Assembly (NCBI GenBank): GCA_963761975.1
Contig: CAVXIR010000007.1
Location: 558,965 to 622,964 of the forward strand
Reading direction: 5' to 3'
Source: Vicinamibacterales bacterium
GTDB taxonomy: Bacteria; Acidobacteriota; Vicinamibacteria; Vicinamibacterales; JAMQPK01
Length of the DNA stretch: 64,000 nt
Below are positions 20,025 to 56,439 of this stretch, in pieces. The notes beneath the pieces are model-generated. The model saw only the letters and a program-made list of their open reading frames with translations, ran no database searches and had not been told where the DNA came from. The stretch's first letter is position 1; each line of letters begins with the position of its first letter. A program made the position numbers and the translations under genes.

Positions 20025-20098
20025 TCGTAGCTCGTAGCTGGTAGCTCGTACCGACACGTAGCTTGTAGCTCTAGCGTGGGATGCTGCCAGCTGCCAGC
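20025..20098. repeat. palindromic array: GTAGCT units (left) and CAGCTA/CAGCTG units (right)
   Basis: TCGTAGCTCGTAGCTGGTAGCTCGTA...GCTGCCAGCTGCCAGCTACCAGCTA. Lies between divergent genes. Confidence 0.85.
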
Positions 20099-20171
20099 TA
20101 CCAGCTAGGTCCATGCTAACATCGCGCCTTCGCCCCCACAGAAACCGGGTTCTTTTTTGAGGATGGCAGCC

Positions 20172-22572: not shown

Positions 22573-22767
22573 CCACGAAGCCACGAAACCACGAAGACAC
22601 GAAGACACGACGACACGACGACACAACAATGGACCCGCGACCCACGAACCTACGAACCTTACGAACTTCACGAACTTCACGAACCCACGAACCTGCGTCG
22701 CGCCATCACCCAGTCATTCGGGGCGCGGCAGCCGACGAACCCACGAAGCCTTACGAACCTACGAACC
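22573..22767. repeat. composite direct array: CCACGAAG/ACACGA(A/C)G units, then CACGAACC units, interrupted by a short GC hairpin
   Basis: Read directly. It fills the gap up to the ferredoxin stop. Confidence 0.9.
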
Positions 22768-23120
22768 TATGAGATCCAGACCGCCTCTGGCGTTATCGTC
22801 TCTTCCGGTGTGCGTCCAGGATCTGGCCGGCCCGACCCGTCGAGCCGGCTAATCGCGCGGACGGTCATATCGTGATCGCACAGGATTTGACAGGACAGCC
22901 TTACGCCCGAGAGGCCCCGTTGTGCGAGCCGTTCCTTCTCGGCCGTCGTCATCCTCGACGGTTCGCCTTCGATGAACTCGACGCGGCAGGTTGTGCACCG
23001 CGCGTTTCCACCGCAGGCGTGCAGAATGTCGACTTTCGCATCCTGCTCGATCGCGAGCACGAGGCGTTTGTTCTCGGCGACATCGAACGTTCCATATCCT
23101 TCAACAGTCAGATTTGGCAT
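22767..23120 (-). CDS. plant-type [2Fe-2S] ferredoxin (117 aa)
   Basis: Cys pattern CGGNARCTTC...C (C-x4-C-x2-C ... C) in a beta-grasp-sized protein. Confidence 0.85.
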   Translation of the reverse strand: MPNLTVEGYGTFDVAENKRLVLAIEQDAKVDILHACGGNARCTTCRVEFIEGEPSRMTTAEKERLAQRGLSGVRLSCQILCDHDMTVRAISRLDGSGRPDPGRTPEETITPEAVWIS

Positions 23121-23137
23121 ACATCATTCTATACACT

Positions 23138-23318
23138 GCGGTTCTGGGTTCTGCGGTTCTGGGTTCTAGGTGCTGGTTCGTTCAGGTTCTAGGTTCAGAT
23201 TCTACGTTCGGGTTCTACGTTCAGTACTAGGTTCCGTTTTTGCGCAGAATGTCTGAACCTAGCACCCCGAACTGAACACCGAGAGCCCAGCACCCAGCAC
23301 CCAGAACCGAGAACCGCG
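23138..23318. repeat. 181-bp palindromic array: GGTTCTG/GGTTCTA units (left) and CCCAGCAC/CAGAACC units (right), with termini CGCGGTTCT / AGAACCGCG
   Basis: Read directly. Lies between divergent genes (ferredoxin and the antitoxin). Confidence 0.9.
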
Positions 23319-25739: not shown

Positions 25740-27376
25740 ATGATTTCATTCTCCAAAATCAATAAGCAATACGGCAAGCAGGTGCTGTTTGTCGACGCGT
25801 CCTTCCAGCTGAACGAAGGCGAGAAAGTCGGGCTGGTCGGTCCGAACGGATCCGGCAAGACCACACTGTTCCGAATGATTATCGGCGAGGAGCAGCCGGA
25901 CGAGGGTGAGGTGTCGGTTCCGCGCAAGGTGACCGTTGGGTACTTCCGCCAGGATGTCGAAGAAATGTCGGGCCGTTCGGTATTGGACGAGGCGATTGCC
26001 GGCAGCGGACGCCTTGGCACGCTCCATCATGAGCTCGAAGAGCTTCAGCACGCGATGTCCGATCCCGCCAAGGCCGGCCAGATGGATACGATCCTCGAGC
26101 GCTTCGGCGTCGTACAGGAAGAGTACGAGCACCTTGGTGGCTATGCGCTTGAAAGCCGTACTCGGGAGATCCTGCACGGTCTCGGATTCGACGACGAGCG
26201 CATCGACGGCGACGTTGGAGCGCTGTCGGGCGGCTGGAAAATGCGCGTCGCGATGGCGCGGGTGCTGCTGGGCGAGCCAGACGTCTTGCTGATGGACGAG
26301 CCGACCAACCACCTCGACATCGAATCGATCATCTGGCTCGAGGACTTTCTGAAGGCGCGAAGCGGCAGCCTGTTGATGACGTCGCACGACCGCGAGTTCA
26401 TGAACCGGGTGGTTTCAAAGATCGCGGAGATCGACGGCGGCGAAATCACGGCCTATTCGGGCAATTACGACTTCTACGAGCGTGAGCGCGCCATTCGCGA
26501 GGCGAATCGTGAAGCCGCATACGCCCGGCAGCAGGCAATGCTGGCCAAAGAGCAGCGGTTCATCGAGCGCTTCTCGGCGCATGCGGCGAAGGCCGCGCAG
26601 GTGCAAAGCCGGGTCAAGGCGCTCGAGAAAATCGAGAAGATCGAGCTGCCGAAGAAGCGCCGGATCGTGAAGTTCGATTTCAGGCAGCCGCCGCGGTCGG
26701 GCGAGCAGGTGGCCACGCTCGAGCATCTCTCGAAACGCTACGGCCAACGTATGGTTCATCAGGATCTGAACCTGAACATCCGGCGGGGCGAGCGCTGGTG
26801 CGTGATGGGCAAGAACGGTGCGGGCAAGTCGACGTTGTTGAAAATGGTCGCCGGCGCGATTCAACCGGATGAGGGCCGGGTCGCGCTCGGCGCCAGCCTG
26901 AAGATGGGTATTTCTCGCAGCAGGCGCTCGATGTGCTCAATCCCGATCTCACCATCGAAGAGCAACTGCAGCGCGACTTTTCGCATGAGTCGATCGGCGT
27001 TCTCAGGAACCTCGCCGGCGCGTTTCAGTTTTCAGGCGAGGACATCGACAAGAAGATCCGCATGCTGTCGGGTGGTGAGAAGACCCGGCTGGTGATGGCG
27101 CGCATGCTGCTGAACCCGCCGAACTTTCTTGTACTCGACGAGCCCACCAATCACCTCGATCTGGCGACCAAGGAAATGCTGCTCCAGTCGCTCGAGGGCT
27201 TCGATGGCACGATGCTGTTCGTGTCTCACGACCGCGCGTTTCTGCGCGCGCTGAGCAACCGTGTCCTGGAGTTGGGTGGAGAAAGCGGCACGGAGACAGC
27301 GCCGCACGTCTACCCAGGGTCGTATGTTGAGTACGTCGAGCGGACCGGTCACGAAGCCCCTGGCGTTCACCGCTGA
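25740..27376 (+). CDS. ABC-F family ATPase (two ABC domains, ~545 aa) with a 1-nt deletion near 26907
   Basis: GPNGSGKTT, LSGGWKMR, LLMDEPTNHLD in the first half. GKNGAGKST, LSGGEKTR, LVLDEPTNHLD in the second half. ORFs 25716..27095 and 26933..27376 join as ..LKMG|YFSQQALDVLNPD. Confidence 0.85.
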
Positions 27377-27411
27377 CGACGGTTTTTTCGTATTTGCTTC
27401 TGTGTGCGGTA

Positions 27412-29685
27412 TCACGCGTACGAAAATGCGAGCTTGTCTCCGTCCACGCTGATCGTGACGGTTCCGCCATTCTCCAATTTCCCGAACAGAATCTCATCAG
27501 TCAGCGGGTCGCGCACGTCGCGCTGGATGACGCGGCTCAGCGGTCGCGCCCCCATCGTCGGGTCGTAGCCCTTCTTCGCGAGCCACGTGCGCGCGTCGGG
27601 GTTGAGGGTGATCGCCACCTTGCGATCTTTCAACTGGCTCTCGAGCTGCAGCACGAACTTCTCGACAATCGTCTCCATCGCTTCAGAGGTGAGCGTCTTG
27701 AACGTGACGATCGCGTCGAGGCGATTCCGGAACTCCGGGCTGAAAACGCGTTCGATGGCCGACTTCGCCTTGCCCAGCGGGCCGCTGTCGGCAAATCCAA
27801 TCGCGCCGACGCTCATTTCCCGCGAACCGGCGTTCGACGTCAGAATCAGCACCGCATTCCGGAAATCCGCCTTCCTGCCGCTGTTGTCGGTGAGCGTCGC
27901 GTGATCCATCACCTGGAGCAAGATGTTGTAGATGTCCTCGTGAGCCTTCTCGATCTCGTCGAGGAGGACGACGCAGTACGGATGCGTGCGAACCGCATCG
28001 ACGAGTTGTCCGCCCTGTTCGAAGCCGACGTATCCGGGTGGGGCGCCGATGAGGCGGGCGACCGCATGCTTCTCCATGTATTCGCTCATGTCGAACCGGA
28101 TGAACTCGTTGCCGAGCAGCAGCGCGAGCTGTTTCGCCAACTCGGTCTTGCCAACGCCCGTCGGACCCGTGAACAGGAAGCAGCCGGCCGGCCGTTCTGG
28201 CAGCGCAAGCCCTGCGCGCGCCCGCTTGATGGACTGTGCCACCAGGCGCACCGCCTCGTGCTGTCCGAACACCACGCGCTCGAGCGACTCTTCCAGGGTT
28301 CTCAGCCGCTCACGATCGGACGAGGACGCCTGGCGCGCTGGAATGCGCGCCATCCGGGCGATGATGATCTCGATATCGGCGACGTCGACGACAACTGCGG
28401 TAGCGTCGGCTGACACGGGACCGGCCTTCAGGCGTGTGACGGCACCCGATTCGTCGATCACATCGATCGCGCTGTCGGGCAGCCGGTAGTCGCGCAGGTG
28501 CCGCGCGGCGAGCTTGGCGGCAGCATCGAGCGCCGCGTCGGTGTACTTGACGTGGTGATGCTCTTCGTACCGGTTCCGCAGGCCGGCAAGGATGCGGACG
28601 GTCTCTTCGGTTGACGGCTCATCGATGGCGATTTTCTGAAGTCGTCGCGCGAGTGCGCGATCCCGTTCGATGTGCTTGAACTCTTCGAACGTCGTCGAGC
28701 CGATCACGCGCATGTCGCCGGTTGTGAGCAGCGGCTTCAACATCGTCGCGAGATCCATCGTGCCGCCGCTGACCGCCCCGGCGCCGACCGTTGCATGAAT
28801 CTCATCGATGAACAGAATCGCCTTCGGCCGCGCGCTCAGCGCCTTGACGACGGCCTTGAAGCGCTCTTCGAAATCGCCGCGGAAGCGCGATCCTGCCAAC
28901 AGGGCGCCCGTGTCGAGCGAGAAGATCTCGGCATCCTTCAACGAATCCTGCACGTCGTCGGTGAGCAGCCGCACGGCGAGCCCTTCGGCCATCGCTGTCT
29001 TGCCGACGCCGGCATCGCCGACGAACACGGGATTGTTCTTGCGGCGGCGGCAGAGCACTTCGATCGTGCGCTGAAGCTCGTCACTGCGGCCAATCAGGGG
29101 ATCCAGCAATCCCTGGCGCGCGCGCGCCGTGAGGTTGATGCAATAGGCAGACAACGGGTCCCGGGCCGTCGCGGGGCCGTGTTCGCCGCCCGGGCCGAGT
29201 CCCTCGCGTGTCTCAGTGGGGTCGGTTGCGCCGCGATCGTCGGCATGAATCGGCGTCTTCGTGATGCCGTGCGCAAGGTACTCGAGCACGTCGAGGCGCG
29301 TAATGCCTTGCTCGGCCAGAAGCATGGCGGCGCGGGTTTGGGGTTGCTGCAGTATCGCGGCAATCAGGTCGCCGACCTGCGCCTCCTGCCGCTGCGCGCT
29401 TTGCACGTGCAGCACGGCCGCCTGCAGCGCCCGTCGGAATGCGGTCGTCTGCTCGGGTTCGCGTTCCTGCCCTCGTGACAGCGCTTCCACCGACGAATCG
29501 AGGCTGTCGTTGAGCTTTCGGCGCAGCACGGGTAGATCGGCGCCGCAGGCGCCGAGGATGCGCTCGCCGTCCGGCTCGTGCGCGAGCGCGTACAACAGAT
29601 GCTCGAGCGTGAGATAGGCATGGCGGCGAGAAACCGCTTCCCTGAACGCAATATGCAGCACAACCTCGACGGCGGTGGAAAACAT
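27412..29685 (-). CDS. clpA: ATP-dependent Clp protease ATP-binding subunit ClpA
   Basis: Clp N-domain, two AAA modules (GDAGVGKT, GPTGVGKT), 757 aa, immediately downstream of clpS. Confidence 0.95.
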   Translation of the reverse strand: MFSTAVEVVLHIAFREAVSRRHAYLTLEHLLYALAHEPDGERILGACGADLPVLRRKLNDSLDSSVEALSRGQEREPEQTTAFRRALQAAVLHVQSAQRQEAQVGDLIAAILQQPQTRAAMLLAEQGITRLDVLEYLAHGITKTPIHADDRGATDPTETREGLGPGGEHGPATARDPLSAYCINLTARARQGLLDPLIGRSDELQRTIEVLCRRRKNNPVFVGDAGVGKTAMAEGLAVRLLTDDVQDSLKDAEIFSLDTGALLAGSRFRGDFEERFKAVVKALSARPKAILFIDEIHATVGAGAVSGGTMDLATMLKPLLTTGDMRVIGSTTFEEFKHIERDRALARRLQKIAIDEPSTEETVRILAGLRNRYEEHHHVKYTDAALDAAAKLAARHLRDYRLPDSAIDVIDESGAVTRLKAGPVSADATAVVVDVADIEIIIARMARIPARQASSSDRERLRTLEESLERVVFGQHEAVRLVAQSIKRARAGLALPERPAGCFLFTGPTGVGKTELAKQLALLLGNEFIRFDMSEYMEKHAVARLIGAPPGYVGFEQGGQLVDAVRTHPYCVVLLDEIEKAHEDIYNILLQVMDHATLTDNSGRKADFRNAVLILTSNAGSREMSVGAIGFADSGPLGKAKSAIERVFSPEFRNRLDAIVTFKTLTSEAMETIVEKFVLQLESQLKDRKVAITLNPDARTWLAKKGYDPTMGARPLSRVIQRDVRDPLTDEILFGKLENGGTVTISVDGDKLAFSYA

Positions 29686-30008
29686 CAGGCGTCCTCTATC
29701 GTCGCACGTAATGGGTAGCCGGCTTCACGTGAGAGCGTGGCGACCTTGTCAACCTTGGTTTCGGCCACTTCCCAGGTATACACACCGGCAAGGCCGCGGC
29801 CATTGAGGTGCACGTGCATCATGATGCGGTAGGCCTCGGCCGGAGACTTCTGGAACAGCGTCTCCAGGATCTGTAGGACGAATTCCATTGTTGTGTAGTC
29901 GTCATTCAACAAGATGACGTTGTAGAGCTTAGGATCCTGGCTCTTCGTTTCGGCGCGTTCCTTGATCGCACCATCAGTCTCGTCGTGCCGGCCAGCCATC
30001 ATGAGCAT
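29685..30008 (-). CDS. clpS: ATP-dependent Clp protease adaptor ClpS
   Basis: LYNVILLNDDYTTMEFVLQIL...F.....A..IM..VH..G core. Overlaps clpA by 1 nt. Confidence 0.9.
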   Translation of the reverse strand: MLMMAGRHDETDGAIKERAETKSQDPKLYNVILLNDDYTTMEFVLQILETLFQKSPAEAYRIMMHVHLNGRGLAGVYTWEVAETKVDKVATLSREAGYPLRATIEDA

Positions 30009-30112
30009 GCTAGCATGCGGAAAAACATGATCATTTCCGCATACGGCACCGCGTCAGCGGATGTCGCTCGTCGCGATCGAATACTTGTTGGCTTGAATGA
30101 ACTGGTGCGGTC

Positions 30113-30340
30113 TTAATCTCGCGGCACTCTCGTCAGTACGCCGTCAGAGTTGCGCCAGATCGTAACGTTGTGGTCGTCGGCCCATTTTTTGGCGATCTGA
30201 AGCGCCGCCGAGAGCTCGCTCAACGTGAGCTGGTGCGGGTGCGGCACCACGCTCAGCAGATGGCGACCACCTTCGGTCGTTATCAGTACATCTCCATTGG
30301 ACGGAGCATCTCCGTTAGATGGAGAGTCGGGCATTTGCAC
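30113..30340 (-). CDS. hypothetical small protein (75 aa)
   Basis: ORF only. Contains the internal duplication SNGDAPSNGD. Weak RBS. Confidence 0.3.
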   Translation of the reverse strand: MQMPDSPSNGDAPSNGDVLITTEGGRHLLSVVPHPHQLTLSELSAALQIAKKWADDHNVTIWRNSDGVLTRVPRD

Positions 30341-30395
30341 AACCTGGGTACTCTATCAAGATCGATGCCTGTCCCACCTTGGGGCGGCGGCTACG

Positions 30396-30602
30396 CTAGA
30401 GATTCGTCAGTTCGGCCGGCAAAATAGCCTGGCAGCTGGGGCAGGCCACCACACGTCCGCGGCGGGGCAGGGTGGATGTGAAGTTTACCTGGTCACGAAG
30501 GAGCCGGACGGCTTTCAGCGTCGACACGATCTGTCCACAGTGTGGGCACTTTACCGGCGTTTCCAGCCGGTAAACCGCATCGAACTTCTCGGGCTGGGCC
30601 AT
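30396..30602 (-). CDS. small zinc-ribbon protein (CPHC...CPSC)
   Basis: Two CxxC pairs 35 residues apart. I prefer the start at MAQPEKF. Confidence 0.45.
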   Translation of the reverse strand: MAQPEKFDAVYRLETPVKCPHCGQIVSTLKAVRLLRDQVNFTSTLPRRGRVVACPSCQAILPAELTNL

Positions 30603-30686
30603 CCTGGATCTTTTCGGCTGATACAAACACTTCCTTTACTTAGAGTTAGCGACTCAGGCAAAATAAATGAAACCCTTGGTGATTGA

Positions 30687-33230
30687 GTGACACAGCTCAG
30701 CAGGCACGCATCGGTATTTGCGGTCGGTGTCGGCATCTGTGCAGCCGTCGCACTGTTCAGCGTGCGCACGTCTGCCGATCAGGCGCCTGCGCCGGTCACG
30801 GCATCATCCACATCCCAGACGGTCGTCAACAAGTACTGCGTCGGTTGCCACAATCAGAAAGCGCGAACCGGTGGACTCGCGCTCGACACGCTCGATGTCG
30901 TGAATCCTGGCCAGCACGCGGAAATCTGGGAGCGCGTTGTTGAGAAGCTGCGCGCTGGTTCGATGCCGCCGCCGGGACGGCCGCGTCCAGACAACGCGAC
31001 ATATCTTGCCGCGGCGACCGAGCTCGAGAACGCACTCGACACGGCATGGGCGGCCCGCCCCGATCCCGGACGCATCGGTGCGGTGCACCGTCTGAATCGC
31101 ACGGAATACGCCAACGCCATCCGCGATCTCTTCGGCTTCAATGCGCAGAGCATCGACGTGCAATCGCAGCTGCCTGGCGACGAAACGGCAGACGGCAGCT
31201 TCGACAACTTCGCCGATTCCCTTTCCATCTCCACAGCGCATCTCGAGCGTTACATGTCCGTTGCGAGGCAAGTCACGCGGCTTGCAACGGCGCTGCCGCC
31301 GACTCATCCGACCGTCGAGATGTTCGAAGTGCCGCTGCACGTGATCCAGGACGACAGGCAGAGCGAAGATCTGCCCTTGGGGTCGCGCGGCGGTATTGCC
31401 GTGCGCTATCACTTTCCGGTCGACGGCGAATATCGCATCGTCGTCCGACTCCAGCGAAACTATCAGGACTATCTCAAAGGGATGGGATGGGAGCAGCAGC
31501 TGGACGTGCGTCTCGACGGAAAGTTGCTGAAGCGATTTGTTGTGGGCGGCAAAGCAGAGGGCCGTCCCGCCGCGGCCAGCTATGCCGGCGATGGCGAGCC
31601 GGGATTTGCCGGTGCGCCCGAGTGGGAAAAGTACATGCAGATCGACGGCGATGCCGACCTCGAGGTGCGTGTGCCGGTCACCGCAGGATCGCGCGCGGTC
31701 GGCGTCTCTTTCGTCCGCCAGTTGTGGGAGCCCGAAGGGCTGCCGCAGCCGCTGCAGCGGGGCCGTGTGATCACGAACGACGAAGTGTACATGGACTACG
31801 CGAACGTCGCGGCTCTGCAGATCGGTGGTCCGTACCCGAGCGGGACGTCGCAAGAAAAACGTGAGACCACGAACCGGGTCTTCACCTGCCGTCCGGCGAG
31901 GGTTTCCGAAGAGCCGGCATGCGCGACGAGGATTTTGTCGCGCCTCGCGCGGCTCGCGTATCGCCGTCCGGTGACGAAAGCGGACGTGCAGACGTTGATG
32001 ACGTTCTTCGCCGATGGACGACGCCAGGGAGGCAGCTTTGCCAGCGGCGTGCAGTTCGCCCTCGAGCGGATGCTCGTCGATCCCGATTTCCTTCTGCGCG
32101 TGTATCGCGATCCGGTTGCTGGTCGTCGTCCGGTTTCACGCGATGGGAAAATCCAATTTCAGTCGGGCGATTCGTATCGCTTATCCGATCTCGAGCTCGC
32201 CTCTCGCCTGTCGTTTTTCCTCTGGTCGAGCATTCCCGATGACCAGTTGCTGACGCTCGCCGAGCAGCGCAAGCTTTCGGATTCGGCCGTGCTCGACCAG
32301 CAGGTGAAGCGCATGCTCGCGGACCCGCGTGCCGAAGAGGCGTTGGTCGACGATTTTGCTGCGCAGTGGCTGAACCTGCGGCGCGTCGAGGAGGTCGTCG
32401 TCGATCCCGAGCGATACCCAAATTACGACCTCACGTTGATGGAGTCGTTCAAGCGCGAGACCGAGCTCTTTGTTGGCAGCACGCTGCGCGACGACAAGAG
32501 CGTGCTCGAGCTGTTGAATGCTGACTACACGTTCCTGAACGAAAGGCTGGCGAGACATTACGGTGTTCCCGGCATCTACGGGAGCCGCTTCCGTCGAGTG
32601 ACGCTCGCCGACAAGAACCAGCGAGGCGGACTGCTTGCGCAAGGCGCGCTCCTCTCGACGACGTCGTATCCCGACAGGACGTCGCCAGTCCTCCGTGGAA
32701 AGTTCCTGCTGAACAATATTCTGGGGCTCCAGGTCACGCCGCCGCCCCCCGGCGTCGACACGAATCTGGCGCCGACCAAGCCGGGCGCGCCGCCGCCGAC
32801 CATCCGCGAACGCCTGGCCGCGCATCGGACGGACCCGACGTGTGCGAGTTGCCATGGCGTCATCAATCCGCTCGGCTTTGCGCTCGAGAACTTCGACGTC
32901 ATCGGCGGGTGGCGGACGACGGATGAAGCGGGCAAGCCGGTCGATGCGGCCGGCACGACGATGAGCGGAAAGAACGTTGAAGGGTTGATCGGGCTGCGAG
33001 CGCTGCTCCTCGAAGACCGCGAGCAGTTCCCGCGCACGGTGACGGAAAAGCTGCTCGCGTATGCGCTCGGCCGGCGAGTCGAGTACTACGATCGGCCTGC
33101 AATCCGTACCATCGTCCGTGATGCCGCAACCCACGACTATCGTTGGTCGTCGTTGATTTTGGGAATCGTCAAGAGCCCGGCGTTCCAGATGCGCCGCAGT
33201 GCTCCAGAGGTACGTAGCGCAGGGCTTTAG
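30687..33230 (+). CDS. DUF1592/DUF1588/DUF1585-type protein with N-terminal cytochrome c (CxxCH) domain (847 aa)
   Basis: NKYCVGCHNQKARTGGLALD heme-binding motif and a C-terminal ..CASCHGVINPLGFALENFD..G.WR motif. Architecture typical of the Planctomycete-type PSCyt/DUF1592 family. Confidence 0.88.
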   Translation: MTQLSRHASVFAVGVGICAAVALFSVRTSADQAPAPVTASSTSQTVVNKYCVGCHNQKARTGGLALDTLDVVNPGQHAEIWERVVEKLRAGSMPPPGRPRPDNATYLAAATELENALDTAWAARPDPGRIGAVHRLNRTEYANAIRDLFGFNAQSIDVQSQLPGDETADGSFDNFADSLSISTAHLERYMSVARQVTRLATALPPTHPTVEMFEVPLHVIQDDRQSEDLPLGSRGGIAVRYHFPVDGEYRIVVRLQRNYQDYLKGMGWEQQLDVRLDGKLLKRFVVGGKAEGRPAAASYAGDGEPGFAGAPEWEKYMQIDGDADLEVRVPVTAGSRAVGVSFVRQLWEPEGLPQPLQRGRVITNDEVYMDYANVAALQIGGPYPSGTSQEKRETTNRVFTCRPARVSEEPACATRILSRLARLAYRRPVTKADVQTLMTFFADGRRQGGSFASGVQFALERMLVDPDFLLRVYRDPVAGRRPVSRDGKIQFQSGDSYRLSDLELASRLSFFLWSSIPDDQLLTLAEQRKLSDSAVLDQQVKRMLADPRAEEALVDDFAAQWLNLRRVEEVVVDPERYPNYDLTLMESFKRETELFVGSTLRDDKSVLELLNADYTFLNERLARHYGVPGIYGSRFRRVTLADKNQRGGLLAQGALLSTTSYPDRTSPVLRGKFLLNNILGLQVTPPPPGVDTNLAPTKPGAPPPTIRERLAAHRTDPTCASCHGVINPLGFALENFDVIGGWRTTDEAGKPVDAAGTTMSGKNVEGLIGLRALLLEDREQFPRTVTEKLLAYALGRRVEYYDRPAIRTIVRDAATHDYRWSSLILGIVKSPAFQMRRSAPEVRSAGL

Positions 33231-33236
33231 CCCTGC
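33212..33236. repeat. ACGTAG-type hairpin ACGTAG-C-GCAGGGC-TTTA-GCCCTGC spanning the DUF1592 stop codon
   Basis: Read directly. Confidence 0.7.
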
Positions 33237-33248
33237 CAAGGAGACCGC

Positions 33249-34586
33249 ATGTTTCTGACATCGAAGGCCCTTCCACGGCGGACCCTTCTTCGAGGGCTCG
33301 GCGCCACGCTGGCGCTGCCGTTTCTCGACGCGATGGCACCTGCGATGGCGGTTGCGGCGCAGCGCGTCGCACGGAAGCCCGCGCACCGGTTTCTCGCGTT
33401 CTACGTGCCCAACGGCATGGCCATGGAGTACTGGTCGCCGAAGGCCGAGGGCAGTGCCTTCGAGTTGACGCCGATTCTGCAGCCCTTTGAGCCCTTCCGG
33501 AATCAGATGCTCGTGGTCTCCGGTATCAACGCCAACTGGGTGGCGATTCACGCCGGCGCATCGGGCGCGTTCCTCACCGGCACGGCCCGTGGCGGCAAGA
33601 CCGAGATTGAGATCTTCGCCGATACCTCGATGGATCAGCTGCTGGCCCGTCATTATGCGAACGAGACGCAGATCGGGTCGCTCGAGATGGCGATGGATCG
33701 GCCGGCAAACGCCGGTGCCTGCACCGGCAATCTGAGCTGCGTGTACACCCACACGCTGTCGTGGCGCAGCCCGACGCAGCCGCTGCCGATGGAATGGAAT
33801 CCGCGCGCGGTGTTCGAGAAACTCTTTGGCGACGCTGGCAGCACCGATCGAGCGGCACGTGAGGCGCGGATGCGCCAGCACAAGAGCATCCTCGATTCGG
33901 TCAATGAGAAGCTGGCCTCACTGCGTACCGAGCTCGGGCCGCAGGATCGGGTGCGAGTGGAGCAGTACACCGAGGCGGTCCGCGATGTCGAACGCAGGAT
34001 TCAGCGAGCCGAGCAGCAGACCGATCTCGAGCTGCCGGACATGGATCAGCCGCAGGGCGCGCCGCCGCTGTTCGAGGATCACCTGACGCTGATGCTTGAT
34101 CTGCAGCTCCTCGCGTTCCAGACCGATCTCACACGCGTCATCTCGTTCATGATCGGCAAGGAGCAGAGCGCACGGCCGTATCCGCAGATCGGTGTGCCCG
34201 AGGCGCATCATCCGTTGTCGCATCACCAGGACAACCCGGATCTCATCGCCCACATGTCGAAGATCAACCGGTACCACACCGAGCTGTTCTCGAAGTATCT
34301 CGCAAGATTGCGAGGCACCCCGGACGGAGAGGGCACGCTGCTCGATCACATGACGATTCTCTACGGGTGCGGCATCTCGAACAGCACGCGGCACTCCGGC
34401 GAGAACCTTCCGTTGCTCGTGATGGGCGGCGGAGCGGGCAAGTTGAAGGGCGGCCGTCACGTGAAGTTCACCGACAAGCCGTCGATGGCGAACCTGTTGA
34501 TGACGCTGATGGACAAGATGGATGTCCCGGTCGAACGGATCGGCGGAAGTACTGGCAAGGTTCAGCTCGATACGCTCGCGCTATGA
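33249..34586 (+). CDS. DUF1552 domain protein with Tat-like signal (445 aa)
   Basis: RRTLLRGLGATLALPFLDAM N-terminus and the canonical position directly after a DUF1592 gene. Confidence 0.88.
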   Translation: MFLTSKALPRRTLLRGLGATLALPFLDAMAPAMAVAAQRVARKPAHRFLAFYVPNGMAMEYWSPKAEGSAFELTPILQPFEPFRNQMLVVSGINANWVAIHAGASGAFLTGTARGGKTEIEIFADTSMDQLLARHYANETQIGSLEMAMDRPANAGACTGNLSCVYTHTLSWRSPTQPLPMEWNPRAVFEKLFGDAGSTDRAAREARMRQHKSILDSVNEKLASLRTELGPQDRVRVEQYTEAVRDVERRIQRAEQQTDLELPDMDQPQGAPPLFEDHLTLMLDLQLLAFQTDLTRVISFMIGKEQSARPYPQIGVPEAHHPLSHHQDNPDLIAHMSKINRYHTELFSKYLARLRGTPDGEGTLLDHMTILYGCGISNSTRHSGENLPLLVMGGGAGKLKGGRHVKFTDKPSMANLLMTLMDKMDVPVERIGGSTGKVQLDTLAL

Positions 34587-35842
34587 AGAAGTACGTCATC
34601 GCCGCGTTGCTCGTCGCCGCACCGGTCTACGCGCAGGATCCGCCGTCCGGTGACGGGTCCACGCCTTTGCACTGGGCCGCCTATCGGGACGACCTGGCAA
34701 AAGCCGATCAACTGATTCGCGGCGGCGCGAACGTGAACGCGGCGAACGATCTCGGCGTGACGCCGCTCTGGGCTGCCAGCATCAACGGCAGCGTGGCGCT
34801 CGTGACGCGTCTGCTCGAGGCCGGCGCCAATCCCAACGCTGCCCTCATGTCGGGGGAGACGCCGCTGATGGTCGCGTCGCGATCGGGCAAGACGGCCGCG
34901 GTCGAGACGCTCCTCGCGAAAAGTGCCAATCCCAATGCGCGCGGGGCGCGCGGTCAGACGGCGCTGATGTGGGCCGTCTCGCAGGGGCACGCAGACGTCG
35001 TCAAGCTGCTCGTCGCCGGCGGCGCGGATGTGCATGCGAAGTCCGACAGCTGGAGCCAGATGATGGCCGTGCCCCCGCACGGCCTCCCCGAGTACAACAG
35101 GATGATTCCGCATGGGGCCGACACGGCGCTCATGTTTGCGGCACGCAACGGCGACATCGCGTCGACGAAGGTTCTTGTCGAAGGCGGCGCGAATGTCGAC
35201 GACCAGGATGCCTGGGGAGTGAGCGCGACGACGCTGGCGGTGTTTTCGGGATCTGGTGAAGTTGCGCGTTATCTGCTCGAGAAGGGCGCCGACCCGAACA
35301 ACGACAAACCGGGTTTCACGGCCCTTCACTGCGCCATCATGCGCCGCGACGAACAGACCGTCGCAGCCCTCCTGGCGCGAGGCGCCAATCCCAATATCAC
35401 AGTGAAGGTCTGGACGCCGACGCGGCGAGCCTCGGACGATTACCATTTCATGCCGGCGCTCGTCGATGCGTCGCCATACTGGCTGGCGGCTCGATTCACC
35501 GAGCCTGGCATGATGCGCCTGCTCGCCAAACACGGCGCCGACACCAAAGTGGTCCACGAGTCCAACTACGTGCAAGGCGAAGGCTATCAGCGTCGGAAGG
35601 AACGAACGACGGCGCTGATGGCTGCGCTGGGCATGGGGGGCGGCGTGGCGTGGGTGCCGGTCGATCGCGCCAAGCGCGATGCGCTCATCCTCGAGACGGT
35701 GACGTTGGCCGCCGAGCTGGGTGCCGATGTGAACGTCGCCAGCATTGATGGCCGCACGGCGCTCGATTCCGCACGCGCGCAGAAGCATGAGGCCGTAGTG
35801 GCGTTCCTCGAAGGCCGCGGCGCGGTCGGCAAATCGCGTTAG
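34583..35842 (+). CDS. ankyrin-repeat protein, secreted (419 aa)
   Basis: ATGA overlap with DUF1552. Signal peptide. Repeated TPLHWAA / G.TALMWA..GH...V..LL..GA(D/N) motifs. Confidence 0.85.
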   Translation: MKKYVIAALLVAAPVYAQDPPSGDGSTPLHWAAYRDDLAKADQLIRGGANVNAANDLGVTPLWAASINGSVALVTRLLEAGANPNAALMSGETPLMVASRSGKTAAVETLLAKSANPNARGARGQTALMWAVSQGHADVVKLLVAGGADVHAKSDSWSQMMAVPPHGLPEYNRMIPHGADTALMFAARNGDIASTKVLVEGGANVDDQDAWGVSATTLAVFSGSGEVARYLLEKGADPNNDKPGFTALHCAIMRRDEQTVAALLARGANPNITVKVWTPTRRASDDYHFMPALVDASPYWLAARFTEPGMMRLLAKHGADTKVVHESNYVQGEGYQRRKERTTALMAALGMGGGVAWVPVDRAKRDALILETVTLAAELGADVNVASIDGRTALDSARAQKHEAVVAFLEGRGAVGKSR

Positions 35843-35871
35843 ATCGCTCGCGGCTCAAGGGCTCTCAGACA

Positions 35872-35965
35872 GCATTGCCGTATTTTCGATTGGCAATTGC
35901 CAAATTCATTGGCGATTGGAAATTCCCAATCAATTCACAATCGTCAATTGAGAATGCGGCAATGC
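35872..35965. repeat. GCATTGCC...GGCAATGC palindromic element, copy a (94 bp)
   Basis: Termini GCATTGCCGTATT / AATGCGGCAATGC. The interior is made of CAATTG/GATTGG/CAATC motifs. Lies between convergent gene ends. Confidence 0.85.
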
Positions 35966-35966
35966 G

Positions 35967-36235
35967 TCATGTCCCCGCTTGATTCTCATTCCTCATGACC
36001 GCCCCCAGCCGCTGAACGGCGCGGTTCACGGCCATTCTCGCGCCGTCAGGCGTATTGAATCCAAACTGCTCGGCAATTTCAGCGACGCTCCATTGTGCTT
36101 CGACGCGTGCGATCACGAGCTCCCGCTCACGGGGCTTCAGCCGGCCCATGGCCGCGCGGTAGTGATCGTAGGTTTCATGCTCGAGCGCCTGATCAAGTGG
36201 CGACGGATCCTCAGACGGGAATTCCGGCGGCAGCT
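35967..36235 (-). pseudogene. ECF sigma factor relic; only the linker plus region 4 remain
   Basis: ..YRAAMGRLKPRERELVIARVEAQWSVAEIAEQFGFNTPDGARMAVNRAVQRL is a sigma70 region 4 HTH. No region 2 is present. Upstream it runs straight into the GTTCGTG array. Confidence 0.75.
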
Positions 36236-36236
36236 C

Positions 36237-36355
36237 TTCGTGAAGTTCGTGGAGGTTCGTGGGTTCGTGGGGTTCGTGGGTTCGTGAGTTCGTGGGTTCG
36301 TAGGTTCGTGGAGTTCGTGGTTCGTGAGTTCGTCGGTTTGTAGTTCGTGGTTCGA
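36237..36355. repeat. tandem array of GTTCGTG units (reverse orientation of CACGAAC), about 14 units
   Basis: Read directly. It forms the left arm of an inverted pair with 36936-37075. Confidence 0.9.
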
Positions 36356-36464
36356 ATTCCGCGTACTTCGCGACGAGGTGGTACGGCAAAAACTGCCTCG
36401 GCGGGCGACTTTGGTTGATTTCGCTGGCGTTGTCGCTGGCCCATACATTGCTCCTTCCCTTCGT

Positions 36465-36893
36465 ATGCGTCGCTATCAAGATTTCAAGGCGTGGCAGCTC
36501 GCACGCGACCTGCACCGGAAAGTCTTTGCGATGACGTCAACGGGCCCAGCGTCTCGCGACTTCAAGTTTCGCGACAATATGCGTGACGCGGCTGATTCGG
36601 CGCAGCGGAATTTTCCCGAAGGATTCGGCCGGTTTGCGCCGGCCGACTTTGCACACTTCTTGGATCACTCCCGCGCGTCTCTGCTGGAGGTGAAGAACGC
36701 AATCGGCGAGGGATTCGAGCGTAAGTATTTTCGCAACGACGAGTGCGTCGAGGCAGACTCACTAGCGGCTCGCGCGTTGAAAGCGCTGTCTGGGCTGCAG
36801 CAGTATCTGCGATCTCCGGAGGCGAAACGAAACGCCGACCGCGCCCGCGCGCAACACATTGCGCGACGAACCCAACGAAACTCACACACCTGA
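36465..36893 (+). CDS. four-helix-bundle protein ('23S rRNA intervening-sequence protein' family, 142 aa)
   Basis: MRRYQDFKAWQLARDLHRKVFAMT...RDNMRDAADSAQRNFPEGFGR....F..FL..S..SL.EV...I is the pattern I recognise for this family. Confidence 0.85.
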   Translation: MRRYQDFKAWQLARDLHRKVFAMTSTGPASRDFKFRDNMRDAADSAQRNFPEGFGRFAPADFAHFLDHSRASLLEVKNAIGEGFERKYFRNDECVEADSLAARALKALSGLQQYLRSPEAKRNADRARAQHIARRTQRNSHT

Positions 36894-36935
36894 TAGCGAC
36901 CGAACGAACCCGCTGATCCCCCAAGGGCCGACTTG

Positions 36936-37075
36936 CCACGAACCTACGAACCCCACGAACCCCACGAACCTACGAACTGTACGAACCCCACGAACCCCAC
37001 GAAGCTACGAACTGCACGAACTCCACGAACCCCCGAACTCCACGAACTCTCACGAACCCACGAAAGCCGGTTTCA
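36936..37075. repeat. tandem array of CACGAACC units, about 16 units; right arm of the inverted pair
   Basis: Read directly. Degenerate units begin already at about 36862, inside the last codons of the four-helix-bundle gene. Confidence 0.9.
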
Positions 37076-37133
37076 ACTCGTCGGGCGACGGATTCAACAG
37101 ATCTTCCGGGACCGGCCACGACGGTTCAGCCAT

Positions 37134-37229
37134 TCAGTACGCCGCAATCGCGCCGCCGTAGCCGGATCCGACCACGATGACGTCATAACGGGAGCGCAAT
37201 TCGCCGATGGGCGTTGATAGGCTCGGCAT
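37134..37229 (-). pseudogene. N-terminal stump (31 codons) of an FAD-dependent oxidoreductase (Rossmann GxGxxG)
   Basis: MPSLSTPIGELRSRYDVIVVGSGYGGAIAAY then a stop. The rest of the gene is missing and the array follows about 60 nt downstream. Confidence 0.55.
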
Positions 37230-37348
37230 CTCAGGTCACGGTTGGGCGAAAACGGCCGATAAGCTATCGTGTGTATGTGTAGAAGGCAGATTCTTCCACT
37301 AACCGAAGACCCCTGCCAGCGGAAAGTAATCCACTCACGTCAACGACC

Positions 37349-38227
37349 GTGAACACCGAATCGAACAGCTCCATCGACGCTTCGCTGGTCGAACGCCTCT
37401 ATCGCCGGGCGAAAGCCAAGCGCTGGCATTTGTCGCACGACGCTTTTGCCGCGGTGCTCGAGACGAGTTGCGCCAAGGCTTTTGCGAATGGGGATCCCGA
37501 ATCGGATGAGCTGTCCCGTTACCTCGAGTCGCTGCATCTCGAGGACCTGGCGCTGGCGTGTGCCTGCGCACTCGGCGATGCCGTTGCGTGGGATCATTTT
37601 GTGATGGAGATGCGTCCAGGCCTGTATCGCGCCGCCGACGCCCTCGATCCGTCGGGCGGCGCCCGCGAGCTGGCCGATTCGCTGTACGGCGATCTCTACG
37701 GTGTCGACAATCGCGGCGAAGCGCGACAGTCGCTGTTGCGGTATTTCCACGGCCGCAGCAGTCTCGCCACGTGGCTTCGTGCCGTGCTGGCGCAGCGACA
37801 CGTCGACCGCATGCGTGTGACGCGACGTGTTGAGCCGCTGCCCGAGGAGATCGCTGCCAGTACACCATTCGAAGCCGCCGACGCCGAATGCCCCAAGTAC
37901 GTCGAGTTTCTCCGTACCGCGCTCGAGCACGCGCTGACGCATCTCGAACCACGCGATCGGCTGCGATTGGGTCTCTACTACGCTCAGCAGCTCACGCTCG
38001 CCGAAACCGGCAGGCTCCTGAAGGAACACGAGGCGACAGCGTCGCGGCAGCTGGCACGGACGCGTAAAGCCGTTCGGAATGAGGTGGAAAAGAAGCTCCG
38101 CGCCGGCGGGTTGAGCGAGGCTGAGGTCGCCCGGTGTTTCGAGTGCGCCGCCAAAGACGCCGGGACGATGAATCTCGAAGAGATGTTGGGCTCGCGCAAG
38201 GAATTCGCGCAGGATCGTTCTGTATGA
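37349..38227 (+). CDS. sigma-70 family (ECF-like) RNA polymerase sigma factor (292 aa, GTG start)
   Basis: Region 2-like ..SLATWLRAVLAQRHVD.. and region 4 ..LEPRDRLRLGLYYAQQLTLAETGRLLKEHEATASRQLARTRKAVR. Confidence 0.8.
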   Translation: MNTESNSSIDASLVERLYRRAKAKRWHLSHDAFAAVLETSCAKAFANGDPESDELSRYLESLHLEDLALACACALGDAVAWDHFVMEMRPGLYRAADALDPSGGARELADSLYGDLYGVDNRGEARQSLLRYFHGRSSLATWLRAVLAQRHVDRMRVTRRVEPLPEEIAASTPFEAADAECPKYVEFLRTALEHALTHLEPRDRLRLGLYYAQQLTLAETGRLLKEHEATASRQLARTRKAVRNEVEKKLRAGGLSEAEVARCFECAAKDAGTMNLEEMLGSRKEFAQDRSV

Positions 38228-39273
38228 AGAAGGAACCAATGGCGGACGACCACGATCGTGAGATGTGGCTTGGCCCGATGTTGCGGCAGGGGCCGACGGC
38301 GGTGTCCGATCCGTGTATCGACCCCGAGTCGCTCGCCGCCTGGGCGGAAGGCAAGCTGGACACGACACAGGCTGGTGCCGTTGAGCTGCACGCGTCGAAC
38401 TGCCAGCGCTGTATGGCGATGTTGGCGTCGATGGCACGTACCACTCCGGCCGAGGAAGAACGGAAGGCATCGTGGAGTAGAGCGGTGTTGATGCGATGGC
38501 TGGTCCCGTTGACAGCGGCGGCCACGGCTATCGCGATCTGGGTGCTGGTGCCGGATCGGCCGGTTACACAGGTACCCTCGGCGACTGTGCCGCACGAAAG
38601 CGCCCCGCAGGAAAGCGCGCGGCAGGATCAGTCGCGTCGACTAGCCAAGGAACCCGACGTTCCGGCGCCGAGGCCGGTGCCGGAGGCCGGCAAGCAGGAT
38701 CAATCCGCGCAGGATCAATTCGCACCCGTGCTGCCGGTCGAGCGAGATGCCGCGATCCAGCGAGAGCCGCCCCCAAGCGCCCTCGAGAACGCAGGACGTC
38801 GTGCTGAGGTGAAGGAGGAGCGTCAGTCACTCGATGCACTCAGAGAGCAAAGCCTTTCAACGTTGAGGGATCGAGCGGCGGCGGCGCCATCGCAAGCTCC
38901 CGCGGCACAGCTGCCCTCCGCTCCGGCCCCAGCGGGGAACGAAACGTTTGCCGCTCCAATGGTTCAGCAGCAGCTGGCGGCGCCAGCCGCTCCGTCGAGC
39001 GAGTCGACGTCGCCGACCGATCCGCTCATCCGATGGAGGGTCGTTGGCTGGGTTGCCGTTGAGCGATCGATTGACGGCGGCAACACCTGGATTAAGACGA
39101 CCACGCCTCCTGGTGTGATCCCGAATGGCACGCCCATGCTCTGGATCATGTCTGTTCGAGCCGTGGACAACCTGCGGGGAACGATTTTAACTTCAGACCG
39201 TAGAGAGTTTTACACGACCAACGGCGGTATCTCCTGGGAGCGCGTGCAAGAAAATTCAGTAGCTCCGTTCTAA
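38224..39273 (+). CDS. anti-sigma factor (zf-HC2, single TM) with Pro/Ala-rich linker and C-terminal Asp-box (BNR-like) domain
   Basis: ATGA overlap with the sigma gene. H-x3-C-x2-C (HASNCQRC). TM segment WLVPLTAAATAIAIWVLV. SIDGGNTW and TTNGGISW Asp-box motifs. Confidence 0.75.
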   Translation: MKKEPMADDHDREMWLGPMLRQGPTAVSDPCIDPESLAAWAEGKLDTTQAGAVELHASNCQRCMAMLASMARTTPAEEERKASWSRAVLMRWLVPLTAAATAIAIWVLVPDRPVTQVPSATVPHESAPQESARQDQSRRLAKEPDVPAPRPVPEAGKQDQSAQDQFAPVLPVERDAAIQREPPPSALENAGRRAEVKEERQSLDALREQSLSTLRDRAAAAPSQAPAAQLPSAPAPAGNETFAAPMVQQQLAAPAAPSSESTSPTDPLIRWRVVGWVAVERSIDGGNTWIKTTTPPGVIPNGTPMLWIMSVRAVDNLRGTILTSDRREFYTTNGGISWERVQENSVAPF

Positions 39274-40802: not shown

Positions 40803-40897
40803 GCATTGCCACATTGAGAATTGACGATTGCCGGACTAATTGGCGATTGAGAAATCGTCAATCAATGGACAATTGCCAATCGAAAATGTGGCAATGC
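40803..40897. repeat. GCATTGCC...GGCAATGC palindromic element, copy b (95 bp)
   Basis: Termini GCATTGCCACATT / AATGTGGCAATGC. Lies between convergent gene ends. Confidence 0.85.
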
Positions 40898-40910
40898 TGC
40901 CGACTCGGAA

Positions 40911-50536: not shown

Positions 50537-50550
50537 CGCTACCGAGCGCT

Positions 50551-50676
50551 GGGTGCGCTAGGTGCGATGGGTGCGTCAGGTGCGATGGGTGCGTCAGGTG
50601 CGTCGGGTGCGTTAGGTGCGTTAGGTGCGTCAGGTGCGTCGGGTGCGTTAGGTGCGTTAGGTGCGTCAGGTGCGTA
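50551..50676. repeat. direct tandem array, 14 units of the 9-nt GGTGCGTNA
   Basis: Read directly. 126 nt long with strict 9-nt phase. Confidence 0.92.
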
Positions 50677-53176: not shown

Positions 53177-53233
53177 AGGGCGAAGGGGCTAAAAGGGCAA
53201 AGGCTGAGGGCTAAGGGCTAAAGGGCTAAGGGG
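53177..53233. repeat. short array of GGGCTAA(A/G) units
   Basis: Read directly. A related array lies at 60631-60668. Confidence 0.8.
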
Positions 53234-53286
53234 CGGAGGAAGTCGTGCTAATCTGCGGCGCACAACCACCATTAACAGGAGGATTC

Positions 53287-54036
53287 ATGAACCGTCGAGT
53301 GTTCGGCATGACTGTCCTCGGAGCGCTAGCCGCCGCACGTTCGGCATTCGGGCAAGCGCCAAACTGGAGCCAATTCAAGCCGCTCCCGGGCTCATTGAAG
53401 GAGAAGATGCACTCGGGCCAGCAGGTTCGAATCGTTGGTGCGACCTTCGACACCACGCGAGCGCAGCTCCAGGAACTCATCAAGAAAAACGGCAAGGTCG
53501 ACCTGTTCTCGCTGGACGCGCAACACCGTCCGCTGCCGGACGAGCGAGAACTGGTGAAGTTCTGCAAGCTTGCCGAGGAGCTCGGCGCGGGCGTTCAATT
53601 GCGCATCCAGCATCCCAAGTGGGCCTATATGACAGGTCGGTACGCCGACCTCGGTGTCCTGGCCGTCATGGTGCCACTGGTGGAAGAGGTCGAGACGACC
53701 GACGAAGCCATCAACAACTTCTACTATCCGCCGATCGGCAACCGCAGCTGGGGTGGGGAATTCAGATATGGAGAGAAGCCGCCGACCGATCGCCTGAAGT
53801 ACGCGCAGTGGTGGAACGGCAACGGACTGCTGGGCTTTCAAATCGAAACGCTTCGCGGCGCGCTCAATGCGAGAAACATCGTCAAGCCGGGCGTCGATTG
53901 GATCTCGTGGGGACCTGGGGACATGGCGTTCGACATCGAGCGACACTCCAACAGCCCGTTCAAGACTATTGAAGAGGCACACGCGTACGTGAAAGAGCAG
54001 TTGAAAGGCTATGACGTACGACTGCCGAGCAACTAG
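53287..54036 (+). CDS. HpcH/HpaI aldolase / citrate lyase-like family protein with signal peptide (249 aa)
   Basis: AGGAGG RBS. ..DAQH.P.....L..F...A...G....LRI.H......TGRYADLGVLAVMVP.VE..E.. resembles the HpcH/HpaI TIM barrel. Moderate certainty. Confidence 0.6.
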   Translation: MNRRVFGMTVLGALAAARSAFGQAPNWSQFKPLPGSLKEKMHSGQQVRIVGATFDTTRAQLQELIKKNGKVDLFSLDAQHRPLPDERELVKFCKLAEELGAGVQLRIQHPKWAYMTGRYADLGVLAVMVPLVEEVETTDEAINNFYYPPIGNRSWGGEFRYGEKPPTDRLKYAQWWNGNGLLGFQIETLRGALNARNIVKPGVDWISWGPGDMAFDIERHSNSPFKTIEEAHAYVKEQLKGYDVRLPSN

Positions 54037-54075
54037 CCGGTAGCCAGTAGCGGGTAGCGACCAGCTACCAGCTAG
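54034..54075. repeat. GGTAGC / GCTACC mini-palindrome filling the whole 35-nt gap between convergent stop codons
   Basis: TAGCCGGTAGCCAGTAGCGGGTAGCGACCAGCTACCAGCTAG. Confidence 0.8.
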
Positions 54076-56323: not shown

Positions 56324-56425
56324 GCATTGCCGCATTTTCAATTGACAACTGCCATATTGATTGACGATTCACACTTGGTCAGTCGCCAATCAATTAGAAA
56401 TTGTCAATTGAAAATGTGGCAATGC
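56324..56425. repeat. GCATTGCC...GGCAATGC palindromic element, copy c (102 bp)
   Basis: Termini GCATTGCCGCATTTTCAATTGACAA / TTGTCAATTGAAAATGTGGCAATGC. Lies between convergent gene ends. Confidence 0.85.
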
Positions 56426-56439
56426 ATGAAGGCCTTCGT

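Follow-up and report, generated by a model that had tools for sequence, protein, structure and literature searches.

We describe here a compact module built around a single gene of the 23S rRNA intervening sequence (IVS) protein family, found in a 64-kb stretch of a metagenome-assembled genome of the Vicinamibacterales (Acidobacteriota). The gene encodes a four-helix-bundle (4HB) protein and lies between two inverted arrays of short tandem repeats (the arms); the whole 64-kb stretch is called the window below. Comparison with related loci showed that this array-gene-array unit is a conserved entity outside rRNA, with tandem arrays on both sides of the 4HB gene in 62 of 74 loci and unit sequences that co-vary between the two arms. 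The explanation that we favor, with moderate confidence, is a conserved single-gene module of soil Acidobacteriota and their relatives, whose arms would flip the gene and border deletions. An initial annotation of the window had proposed such a unit outside rRNA and had taken its architecture to be uncharacterized. Both points hold: in open-access papers and preprints we found no published description of it, and no report of PF05635 genes between inverted arrays or of such arrays.

Conservation and polarity of the arms

The loci compared came from one representative genome per species, which gave 16 loci with 4HB relatives (L004 to L019), and from a scan of metagenomes, which added 80 loci; the 74 loci counted are those with at least 200 nt on each side. 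The 4HB relatives in the 16 genome loci, at 34–85% identity, were nearly all bracketed alike, and over the whole set the bracketing holds across 34–94% protein identity. Arm units were of 7, 8, 9, 10, and 22–24 nt and fell into at least 10 families; the pairs found in the most distant relatives were GGTACGTCG/CGACGTACC (L018), GAGCTGATG/CATCAGCTC (L019), GGTTCAGG/CCTGAACC (L017), and GATCGTTCG/CGAACGATC (L012). Polarity was strict. In the sense of the 4HB gene, the G/T-rich arm was upstream and the A/C-rich arm downstream in all 62 doubly bracketed loci.

Within a locus, the consensus of one arm and the reverse complement of its partner differed by 12% mismatch. When arms were permuted among loci of the same period the mismatch rose to 24.6%, and none of 5,000 permutations reached 12%.

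The surroundings of the arms were examined in 32 loci with long flanks. In 18 of them the outer edge of the left arm has the end of a co-directional open reading frame (ORF) no more than 45 nt away; for the right arm, 24 loci have the end of a convergent ORF at such a distance from the outer edge, often at 0–6 nt. The usual place of the module is thus the gap in which two convergent genes end, and its arms follow there, relative to these neighbors, the polarity rule of the lineage described below. The window departs from this convergent setting on both sides because its neighbors carry deletion scars; there, as in the sister locus L001, what borders the left arm is the start of a gene (or its remnant) and not a 3′ end.

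The predicted stem and a candidate promoter

The annotation had predicted that the arms could form a stem of about 120 nt around the ORF, and this was borne out. In the minimum free energy fold of 36225–37090 the arms pair as a near-continuous stem of ~115 nt with a free energy of −403 kcal/mol, against −330 ± 8 kcal/mol for shuffled sequences (z = −9.65). A self-BLAST of the window returned the arms around the 4HB gene as the sole inverted pair with arms more than 200 nt apart, and the same self-comparison of the related loci (about 150 kb) returned only 4HB-bracketing pairs at such distances. The loop between the arms is near-constant in size (about 450–650 nt; 526–619 nt by BLAST). Array length, in turn, changes fast: the window and L001 have 14 and 7 units in the left arm, and 16 and ~4 in the right.

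The leader between the left arm and the gene was aligned for 12 loci and has the conserved blocks CTGCGTACT, GC-AAAAYTGC, and GATTTC. Its most conserved feature is GGC-N8-TGC, 13–15 nt ahead of the start codon, and 14 of the 17 genome loci have it in this place. In the window this element, TGGCCCATACATTGCT, is the sole match to TGGC-N7-TTGCT on both strands of the 64 kb; its −12 GC stands 13 nt before the ATG, its GG and GC have the exact −24/−12 spacing of sigma-54 promoters, and it matches 10 of the 12 consensus positions. We scored the 100 nt upstream against the consensus TGGCACG-N4-TTGCW, with an exact GG-N10-GC required. At least 9 of 12 positions matched upstream in the sense direction in 51 of 94 loci, compared with 3 of 94 in antisense and 1 of 94 inside the gene. 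RNAalifold gave no supported structure for the leader, Rfam gave nothing relevant in it, and a scan for sigma-70 promoters and terminators gave nothing useful. We infer that the 4HB gene would have a sigma-54-type promoter of its own and that its mRNA would be leaderless or nearly so. Among the genes scanned, in a search confined to the window, there was no rpoN and no enhancer-binding activator.

The place of this putative promoter bears on the reading of the module as an IVS-like RNA element, in which a transcript would span both arms and RNase III would cut the ~115-bp stem, releasing or destroying the 4HB mRNA. That reading draws on the strength of the predicted stem, on the co-variation of the arms in unit family, and on a protein family and an ORF-in-stem-loop layout as in the IVSs of Coxiella and Leptospira (PMC4990558). 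The left arm also usually abuts the stop of a co-directional upstream gene, so that read-through would include it. However, with the promoter between the left arm and the ATG, the gene's own mRNA would carry the right arm and not the left, and an IVS-like stem would be possible only in read-through RNA from the upstream gene. Sense and antisense arm hairpins were equally stable (30 vs. 31 of 62 loci), so there is no strand-specific (G·U) signature of RNA-level pairing, and no finer compensatory change was seen within the main unit family. Rfam (E-value mode) gave no rRNA match over 35800–37400, where the one match returned was a spurious mir-304 on a neighboring palindromic repeat, and the module has no rRNA context. 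The putative promoter downstream of the left arm and the missing G·U signature speak against RNase III excision as the main route and give no support to such a stem for the 4HB gene's own mRNA (the annotation had envisaged a stem in a transcript across the arms), and we regard the RNA-element reading as unlikely.

Orientation and position of the module in related genomes

One chromosomal site holds the module in three arrangements, depending on the species. L006 and L013 (and L004) have the order DNAalk - arm - 4HB(+) - arm′ - RidA(−) - arm′, L005 has this arrangement with the 4HB gene inverted, and L007 has DNAalk - arm - RidA(+) - arm - 4HB(+) - arm′; the third array adjoins RidA at this DNAalk/RidA site. 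When L004, L006, and L013 were compared with L005, the flanks aligned inverted and the core direct, and the same was found for L010 against L011. Inverted repeats thus surround a segment found in both orientations at two independent site pairs, as seen between genomes only. Judged from the sequences, the RidA/4HB arrangements are explicable by single inversions between oppositely oriented arrays.

Position differs as well as orientation. In L010 and L011 the module lies at a distance of ~3 kb and separates two genes that L004 has side by side; here too both orientations occur. The empty site of L004 that is filled in L010 and L011 is without arrays, and the empty RidA site of L010 has arrays of other families, (AGATTCT)n and a (GGAGTCC)n hairpin. 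Altogether the module was found in at least six unrelated neighborhoods, and these comparisons suggest that it is mobile. The annotation had spoken of a mobile or recombinogenic cassette; recombination at the arms fits the comparative data, but mobility is only suggested, no transposase or recombinase having been seen.

Should the module be a transposable element, its arrays would be terminal inverted repeats, the 4HB protein a mobility factor or cargo, and the frequent gene-less hairpin arrays derivatives like miniature inverted-repeat transposable elements (MITEs). The number of neighborhoods, the array-free empty site of L004 that is filled in L010 and L011, the abundance of gene-less inverted arrays, and an old proposal of a mobility role for IVS ORFs (cited in PMC4990558) all favor this. 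Yet neither the module nor its vicinity has a transposase, integrase, or reverse transcriptase (RT), no catalytic motif is known for the four-helix bundle, and arm length and unit sequence vary freely, unlike transposase-recognized ends. The scan of the genome collection with stringent patterns returned no genome with more than one 4HB locus, the 64-kb window has one copy, and the intergenic flanks at empty and filled sites are too diverged to align for a target-site duplication. We consider a transposable element quite unlikely.

A programmed invertible switch (inverton or shufflon) would have a recombinase flip the segment often, varying expression of the 4HB gene or of a neighbor. It would account for both orientations at the same site in the two site pairs, and of the four arrangements that the three arrays around RidA and 4HB allow, three were seen. 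Against it, the promoter would move with the gene, which leaves flipping with no obvious regulatory effect, and no recombinase gene lies within about ±13 kb (annotation of the window's contig and Pfam scans). Arms as long, imperfect, and variable as these are to be expected of homologous recombination and not of a site-specific kind, and the single orientation per assembly, with flanks that diverge by 5–15% between orientation states, fits rare evolutionary events. Such a switch is improbable in our view.

Deletions at the borders of the arrays

The sister locus L001 is 88–91% identical to the window in nucleotide sequence and syntenic over window positions 26979–36937. It carries the same 4HB gene with a short left arm (~7 units), which adjoins a full-length extracytoplasmic function (ECF) sigma gene of ~195 aa that includes region 2 and has one frameshift in the assembly. 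The last window position with homology to L001 is 36236, where the array begins, and the window is without ~370 bp of the sigma gene, that is, its 5′ two-thirds. On the right, L001 has a few degenerate units, then a TonB-type receptor gene, which ends there, and further genes; ~9 kb rightward of the 4HB gene come those for a metallophosphoesterase and a large GMC oxidoreductase. L020 has the same GMC gene intact, with 1190 aa (4316–7885, minus strand); it diverges there from the orthologue of the ECF sigma gene that the window has at 37349, and the window remnant aligns with codons 1–35 of this GMC gene. Relative to L001, the loss on the right side comes to ~12.5 kb, from the TonB-type receptor gene through all but 35 GMC codons; this is an estimate made by placing the GMC length of L020 on L001, whose GMC gene runs off the locus end. 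Both arms are longer in the window than in L001.

A further deletion was found in L004, which is without the DNA-alkylation-repair gene held by L006, L007, and L013. Its junction joins the array to a unit-like GGTTCGT found where the upstream gene ends; this microhomology suggests illegitimate recombination between array units and look-alike sequences. Each of the three deletions ends at an array border or no more than ~50 nt from one.

The alignment with orthologous loci showed that both flanking stumps of the window are true remnants, as the annotation had claimed, the sigma gene being full length in L001 and the oxidoreductase whole in L020. Its description of genes cut exactly at the arrays is right for the left side but not for the right, where about 50 nt intervene; likewise, the oxidoreductase stump is an N-terminal GMC remnant, but it extends beyond 31 codons, to ~35 codons at 37126. 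The truncations are not marks of the arrival of the cassette. The module already stands beside a full-length sigma gene in L001, and the truncations are therefore deletions that followed once it was in place.

Arrays elsewhere in the window

Besides the two arms, the window has about 15 other arrays, of the same and of different unit types (Table 1); the other unit families are GGTTCTG, CAGATTGT, GGTGCGTYA, GGGCTAA, GAGACTCC, and TCGTAGC. The arrays are intergenic, with units of 7–9 nt, and stand mostly at gene 3′ ends, abutting stop codons. In 10 of 10 cases in the window in which an array abuts a stop codon, it is G/T-rich on the sense strand of that gene; the sole array of the window to break this rule is the right arm after the 4HB gene. 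All gene-less hairpin arrays seen had their G/T-rich arm first. Arrays as such are widespread in the window and thus not special to the 4HB locus, and they may be a lineage-specific 3′-end or transcription-boundary element.

At orthologous intergenic positions (L010:810–900 and 1290–1500 vs. L004:3795–5001) the units are wholly different: L010 has (AGATTCT)n and a (GGAGTCC)n/(GGAGACTAGG)n hairpin there, and L004 to L007 have ACGAACC-type units. The position of an array is conserved between these related species and its sequence is not. A separate repeat, an AT-rich palindrome of ~95 nt (GCATTGCCGCATTTTCAATTGACAATTGCC...GGCAATTGTCAATTGAAAATGTGGCAATGC) that resembles repetitive extragenic palindromic (REP) sequences or MITEs, occurs at 35873–35963, 40803–40899, and 56324–56426. 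The first copy, which separates the sigma relic from an ankyrin gene, is missing from L001 and is thus an insertion polymorphism.

These arrays raise the question of coincidence, that is, whether the arms are ordinary 3′-end features of the neighboring genes and the 4HB gene lies between two of them by chance. Most of the other window arrays do abut stop codons with the same polarity, and in most loci the arms begin a few nucleotides from the stop codons of the neighbors. But chance would have to produce the bracketing in 62 of 74 loci, across the full range of protein identity and with 10 or more families of units. At the stringency of the self-BLAST, the 4HB gene is also the only one bracketed, in the window as in the loci. 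Moreover, the left arm of the window and L001 adjoins a gene start or remnant, and the empty site of L004 has no arrays. Coincidence is hardly credible.

The 4HB protein

The 4HB gene is a member of the "23S rRNA IVS protein" family (S23p, Avd-like). Its product scored 65.6 bits against PF05635 (cutoff 33.8; E = 5e-18) and 56.4 bits against TIGR02436 (cutoff 24), and its best sequence match in the PDB was 2GSC (1e-11). The AlphaFold2 model (pLDDT 94.4, pTM 0.84) was compared by Foldseek with 2GSC (Xcc0516; E = 1.7e-5, TM 0.91, root-mean-square deviation 1.9 Å), 2RLD (BT_0352; TM 0.80–0.84), and the accessory variability determinant (Avd) of diversity-generating retroelements (DGRs), in 4DWL and in the DGR ribonucleoprotein 8UB7 (TM 0.7–0.8). 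The predicted model thus confirms for the window protein an up-down four-helix-bundle fold like that of Xcc0516 and BT_0352. Avd, a relative of the 4HB protein, binds nucleic acid as a pentameric ring. The C-terminal helix of the 4HB protein is basic, and its final codons are made of degenerate array units.

No exact-protein record was found for the 142-aa product, for which the collection's gene call starts elsewhere (189 aa). Several observations concern how such genes are called. In L012 (4001–4537) the ORF runs through the entire right arm and gains an (NESNDP)n tail, and many database entries, such as the homologues P0008, P0015, P0020, and P0095, have array-encoded extensions, N-terminal GFVGFVG... 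or C-terminal HEPTNPRT..., which are probably over-extended gene calls. The 4HB genes of L008, L011, L013, and L016, and the sigma gene of L001 (L001:9232–9835), are split across reading frames; these may be homopolymer errors of long-read assemblies or real pseudogenes.

Layout of the locus and neighboring genes

The five parts of the locus named by the annotation (sigma-factor relic, left array, 4HB gene, right array, and oxidoreductase stump) were all found where it had placed them (Table 1). The sigma relic aligns solely with positions ~91–165 of TIGR02937, the C-terminal half of ECF sigma models. The left arm is G/T-rich, with a C/G ratio of 0.30, and terminates in GGTTCGAA; the right arm, its reverse complement, is C-rich and G-poor, with a C/G ratio of 2.86. 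The spacer that follows the right arm had no match in L001, L020, any other locus, or the rest of the window. In the GMC remnant, the minus strand from 37229 to 37134 encodes MPSLSTPIGELRSRYDVIVVGSGYGGAIAAY*, and the in-frame TGA at 37134–37136 arose by point mutation.

Table 1. Positions of the module, its flanking remnants, and the other tandem arrays in the window
Feature	Position	Strand	Description
ECF sigma-factor relic, region 4 only	35967–36236	−	89 residues; PF08281 Sigma70_r4_2, E = 7e-7
Left (upstream) arm	36237–36355	+	~14–15 tandem GTTCGTG-type units of 7–10 nt, head-to-tail
Leader, left arm to start codon	36356–36464	+	~110 nt, conserved
Sigma-54-type promoter-like element TGGCCCATACATTGCT	36437–36452	+	GG-N10-GC, 10 of 12 consensus positions
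Intact 4HB gene	36465–36893	+	142 aa; PF05635/TIGR02436
Right (downstream) arm	36936–37075	+	~15–16 tandem CACGAAC-type units of 8–10 nt
Spacer, right arm to oxidoreductase remnant	37076–37125		about 50 nt
GMC-family FAD oxidoreductase, N-terminal remnant	37126–37229	−	~35 codons of a ~1190-aa protein
ACGAACC-type arrays	403–626, 1860–1989, 6253–6306, 22574–22769, 43171–43218		
Gene-less self-inverted "hairpin arrays"	10158–10271, 11639–11792, 23136–23315, 8199–8334, 54034–54074		Short loop
Further arrays	20025–20106, 50546–50675, 53177–53234, 60631–60664, 63839–63920		

To the right, 37349–39273 holds two ORFs. The first is a 292-aa ECF-type sigma factor whose nearest NCBIfam model, TIGR03001 (Myxococcales-type), scores well under its cutoff. 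The second overlaps the sigma gene and has a weak zf-HC2 anti-sigma motif, and the pair is conserved beside the GMC oxidoreductase gene in relatives. A DUF1552 gene is another neighbor of the 4HB locus in the window. Farther away, an ORF at 16308–17342 has a P63C domain (PF10546, E = 2e-31), which is typical of phage or mobile-element proteins, and an AAA ATPase gene is nearby at 17816–18823. Here there may be a mobile or defence island of small size, with no relation to the 4HB module. The PADLOC defence models gave no match.

A model for the module

In the explanation that we favor, the module would consist of a PF05635 gene that carries a sigma-54-type promoter and starts leaderless or nearly so, held in the loop of inverted arrays and normally wedged between the stop codons of two convergent neighbors. 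Its arms would belong to the strand-asymmetric 3′-end arrays of the lineage, which are G/T-rich on the sense strand of the preceding gene. Inversion between the arms would yield the observed orientation states, and the outer edges of the arms coincide with deletion junctions. Concerted evolution, by slippage within arms and gene conversion between them, may keep the arms complementary. Such strict polarity, in 62 of 62 loci and in every gene-less hairpin array seen, suggests a process that treats the two strands differently, of which transcription is the simplest candidate. The arms would probably act in transcription as directional stops or insulators that shield the neighbors. The A/C-rich, G-poor arm would be the last met by the 4HB mRNA and by read-through RNA, and it resembles a Rho-loading (rut) tract; a C-rich, G-poor composition is that of Rho-loading sites.

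Several observations weigh against this explanation. In 12 of the 74 loci no array was detectable on one side, and in the sister locus the right arm is vestigial; at least over short periods, then, the arms can be dispensed with. In the ACGAACC group, the duplex energy of an arm with its own partner was no better than with a foreign arm (the effect was marginal and driven by L012). The ACGAACC family thus has no finer own-partner complementarity, and arm co-variation is at the level of the unit family and not of single base pairs. The inversions are differences between assemblies of different species, with one orientation per assembly, and no annotated neighborhood has a transposase, recombinase, or reverse transcriptase. 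The right-hand deletion of the window ends ~50 nt from the array and not inside it. Finally, the promoter and the leaderless start are predictions from sequence, and so is any termination at the arms.

More speculatively, the ORF-containing 23S rRNA IVSs would have arisen from an element whose free-living form exists in these modules, a distinct "hairpin-dwelling" class of genetic element. We consider this proposal unlikely as a whole. Under it, the PF05635 pentamer may recognize the tandem units, or their hairpin or cruciform, and may promote array formation, homogenization, or recombination; the intergenic and gene-less hairpin arrays may then be products or targets of the 4HB protein. Alternatively, the pentamer may use the A/C-rich 3′ array of the mRNA to pair with the G/U-rich 3′ arrays of many other transcripts.

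Relation to known systems

The closest known system is the 23S rRNA IVS of Leptospira, Coxiella burnetii, Brucella, and of the Xanthomonas type. Like the module, it has a gene of the S23p/PF05635 family, its ORF lies in the loop of a stem of flanking complementary sequences, it is compact (about 0.45–0.85 kb) with no second gene, and it is placed where a hairpin otherwise sits; a selfish or mobile origin of the IVS has long been suspected (PMC4990558). The IVS, however, sits in helix 9, 25, or 45 and has a unique inverted repeat of ~28 bp, whereas the module stands between protein-coding genes or their remnants and has arms that are tandem arrays of 50–200 nt with units of 7–24 nt. Fixed strand polarity of the arms and a putative sigma-54-type promoter of its own inside the 5′ arm also set the module apart, and excision from the precursor RNA by RNase III is a feature of the IVS.

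Avd has the same four-helix-bundle fold as the 4HB protein and is likewise small and basic, and PF05635 is the family that detects Avd-like proteins, present in DGRs (PMC10053308). The two share, however, only ~10% sequence identity, and the 4HB gene comes without an RT or a template/variable repeat. No RT domain was found among the called genes around the window, L001, L002, and L020. A DGR was rejected on these grounds, there being no template/variable repeat pair near the gene and no repeats other than the arrays. A CRISPR array was rejected too, because the units are contiguous 7–10-nt repeats with no spacers. PF05635 genes have been reported in cas loci (PMC3936711, PMC10910872).

Invertons and shufflons, and more broadly rearrangements driven by inverted repeats, resemble the module in having inverted repeats around a segment found in both orientations, and the three-array setting gives several permutations. 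Unlike them, the module has no dedicated recombinase seen nearby, its repeats are long and degenerate, and its states differ between species. The arrays themselves recall REP sequences and bacterial interspersed mosaic elements (BIMEs) and the tandem repeats of Borgs, which are also short, intergenic, biased to 3′ ends, capable of forming hairpins, fast-changing in copy number, and of independent origin at many sites (PMC3733652, PMC9879509). They differ from these in their head-to-tail units of 7–24 nt, in the many families per genome, in the G/T-rich-first polarity, and in that one class of array encloses a protein gene.

The function and origin of ORF-bearing 23S rRNA IVSs and of S23p proteins have been open for more than 25 years (PMC4990558). 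The modules add a large, diverse, and previously undescribed set of the "ORF inside stem" design outside rRNA, in dozens of soil-bacterial genomes. For annotation, they show that gene callers often extend 4HB ORFs into the arrays and so create spurious GFVGFV... or HEPTNPRT... tails. The sigma-54-type promoter, the polar co-varying arms, and the rearrangements that map to the arms are directly testable features, and they make testable whether the stem is an RNA or a DNA signal and whether the protein acts on its own arms. The lineage-wide polar arrays at intergenic 3′ ends may be a new kind of transcription boundary, and the question of whether inverted arrays drive gene inversion and loss in the abundant, little-studied soil Acidobacteriota becomes testable as well.

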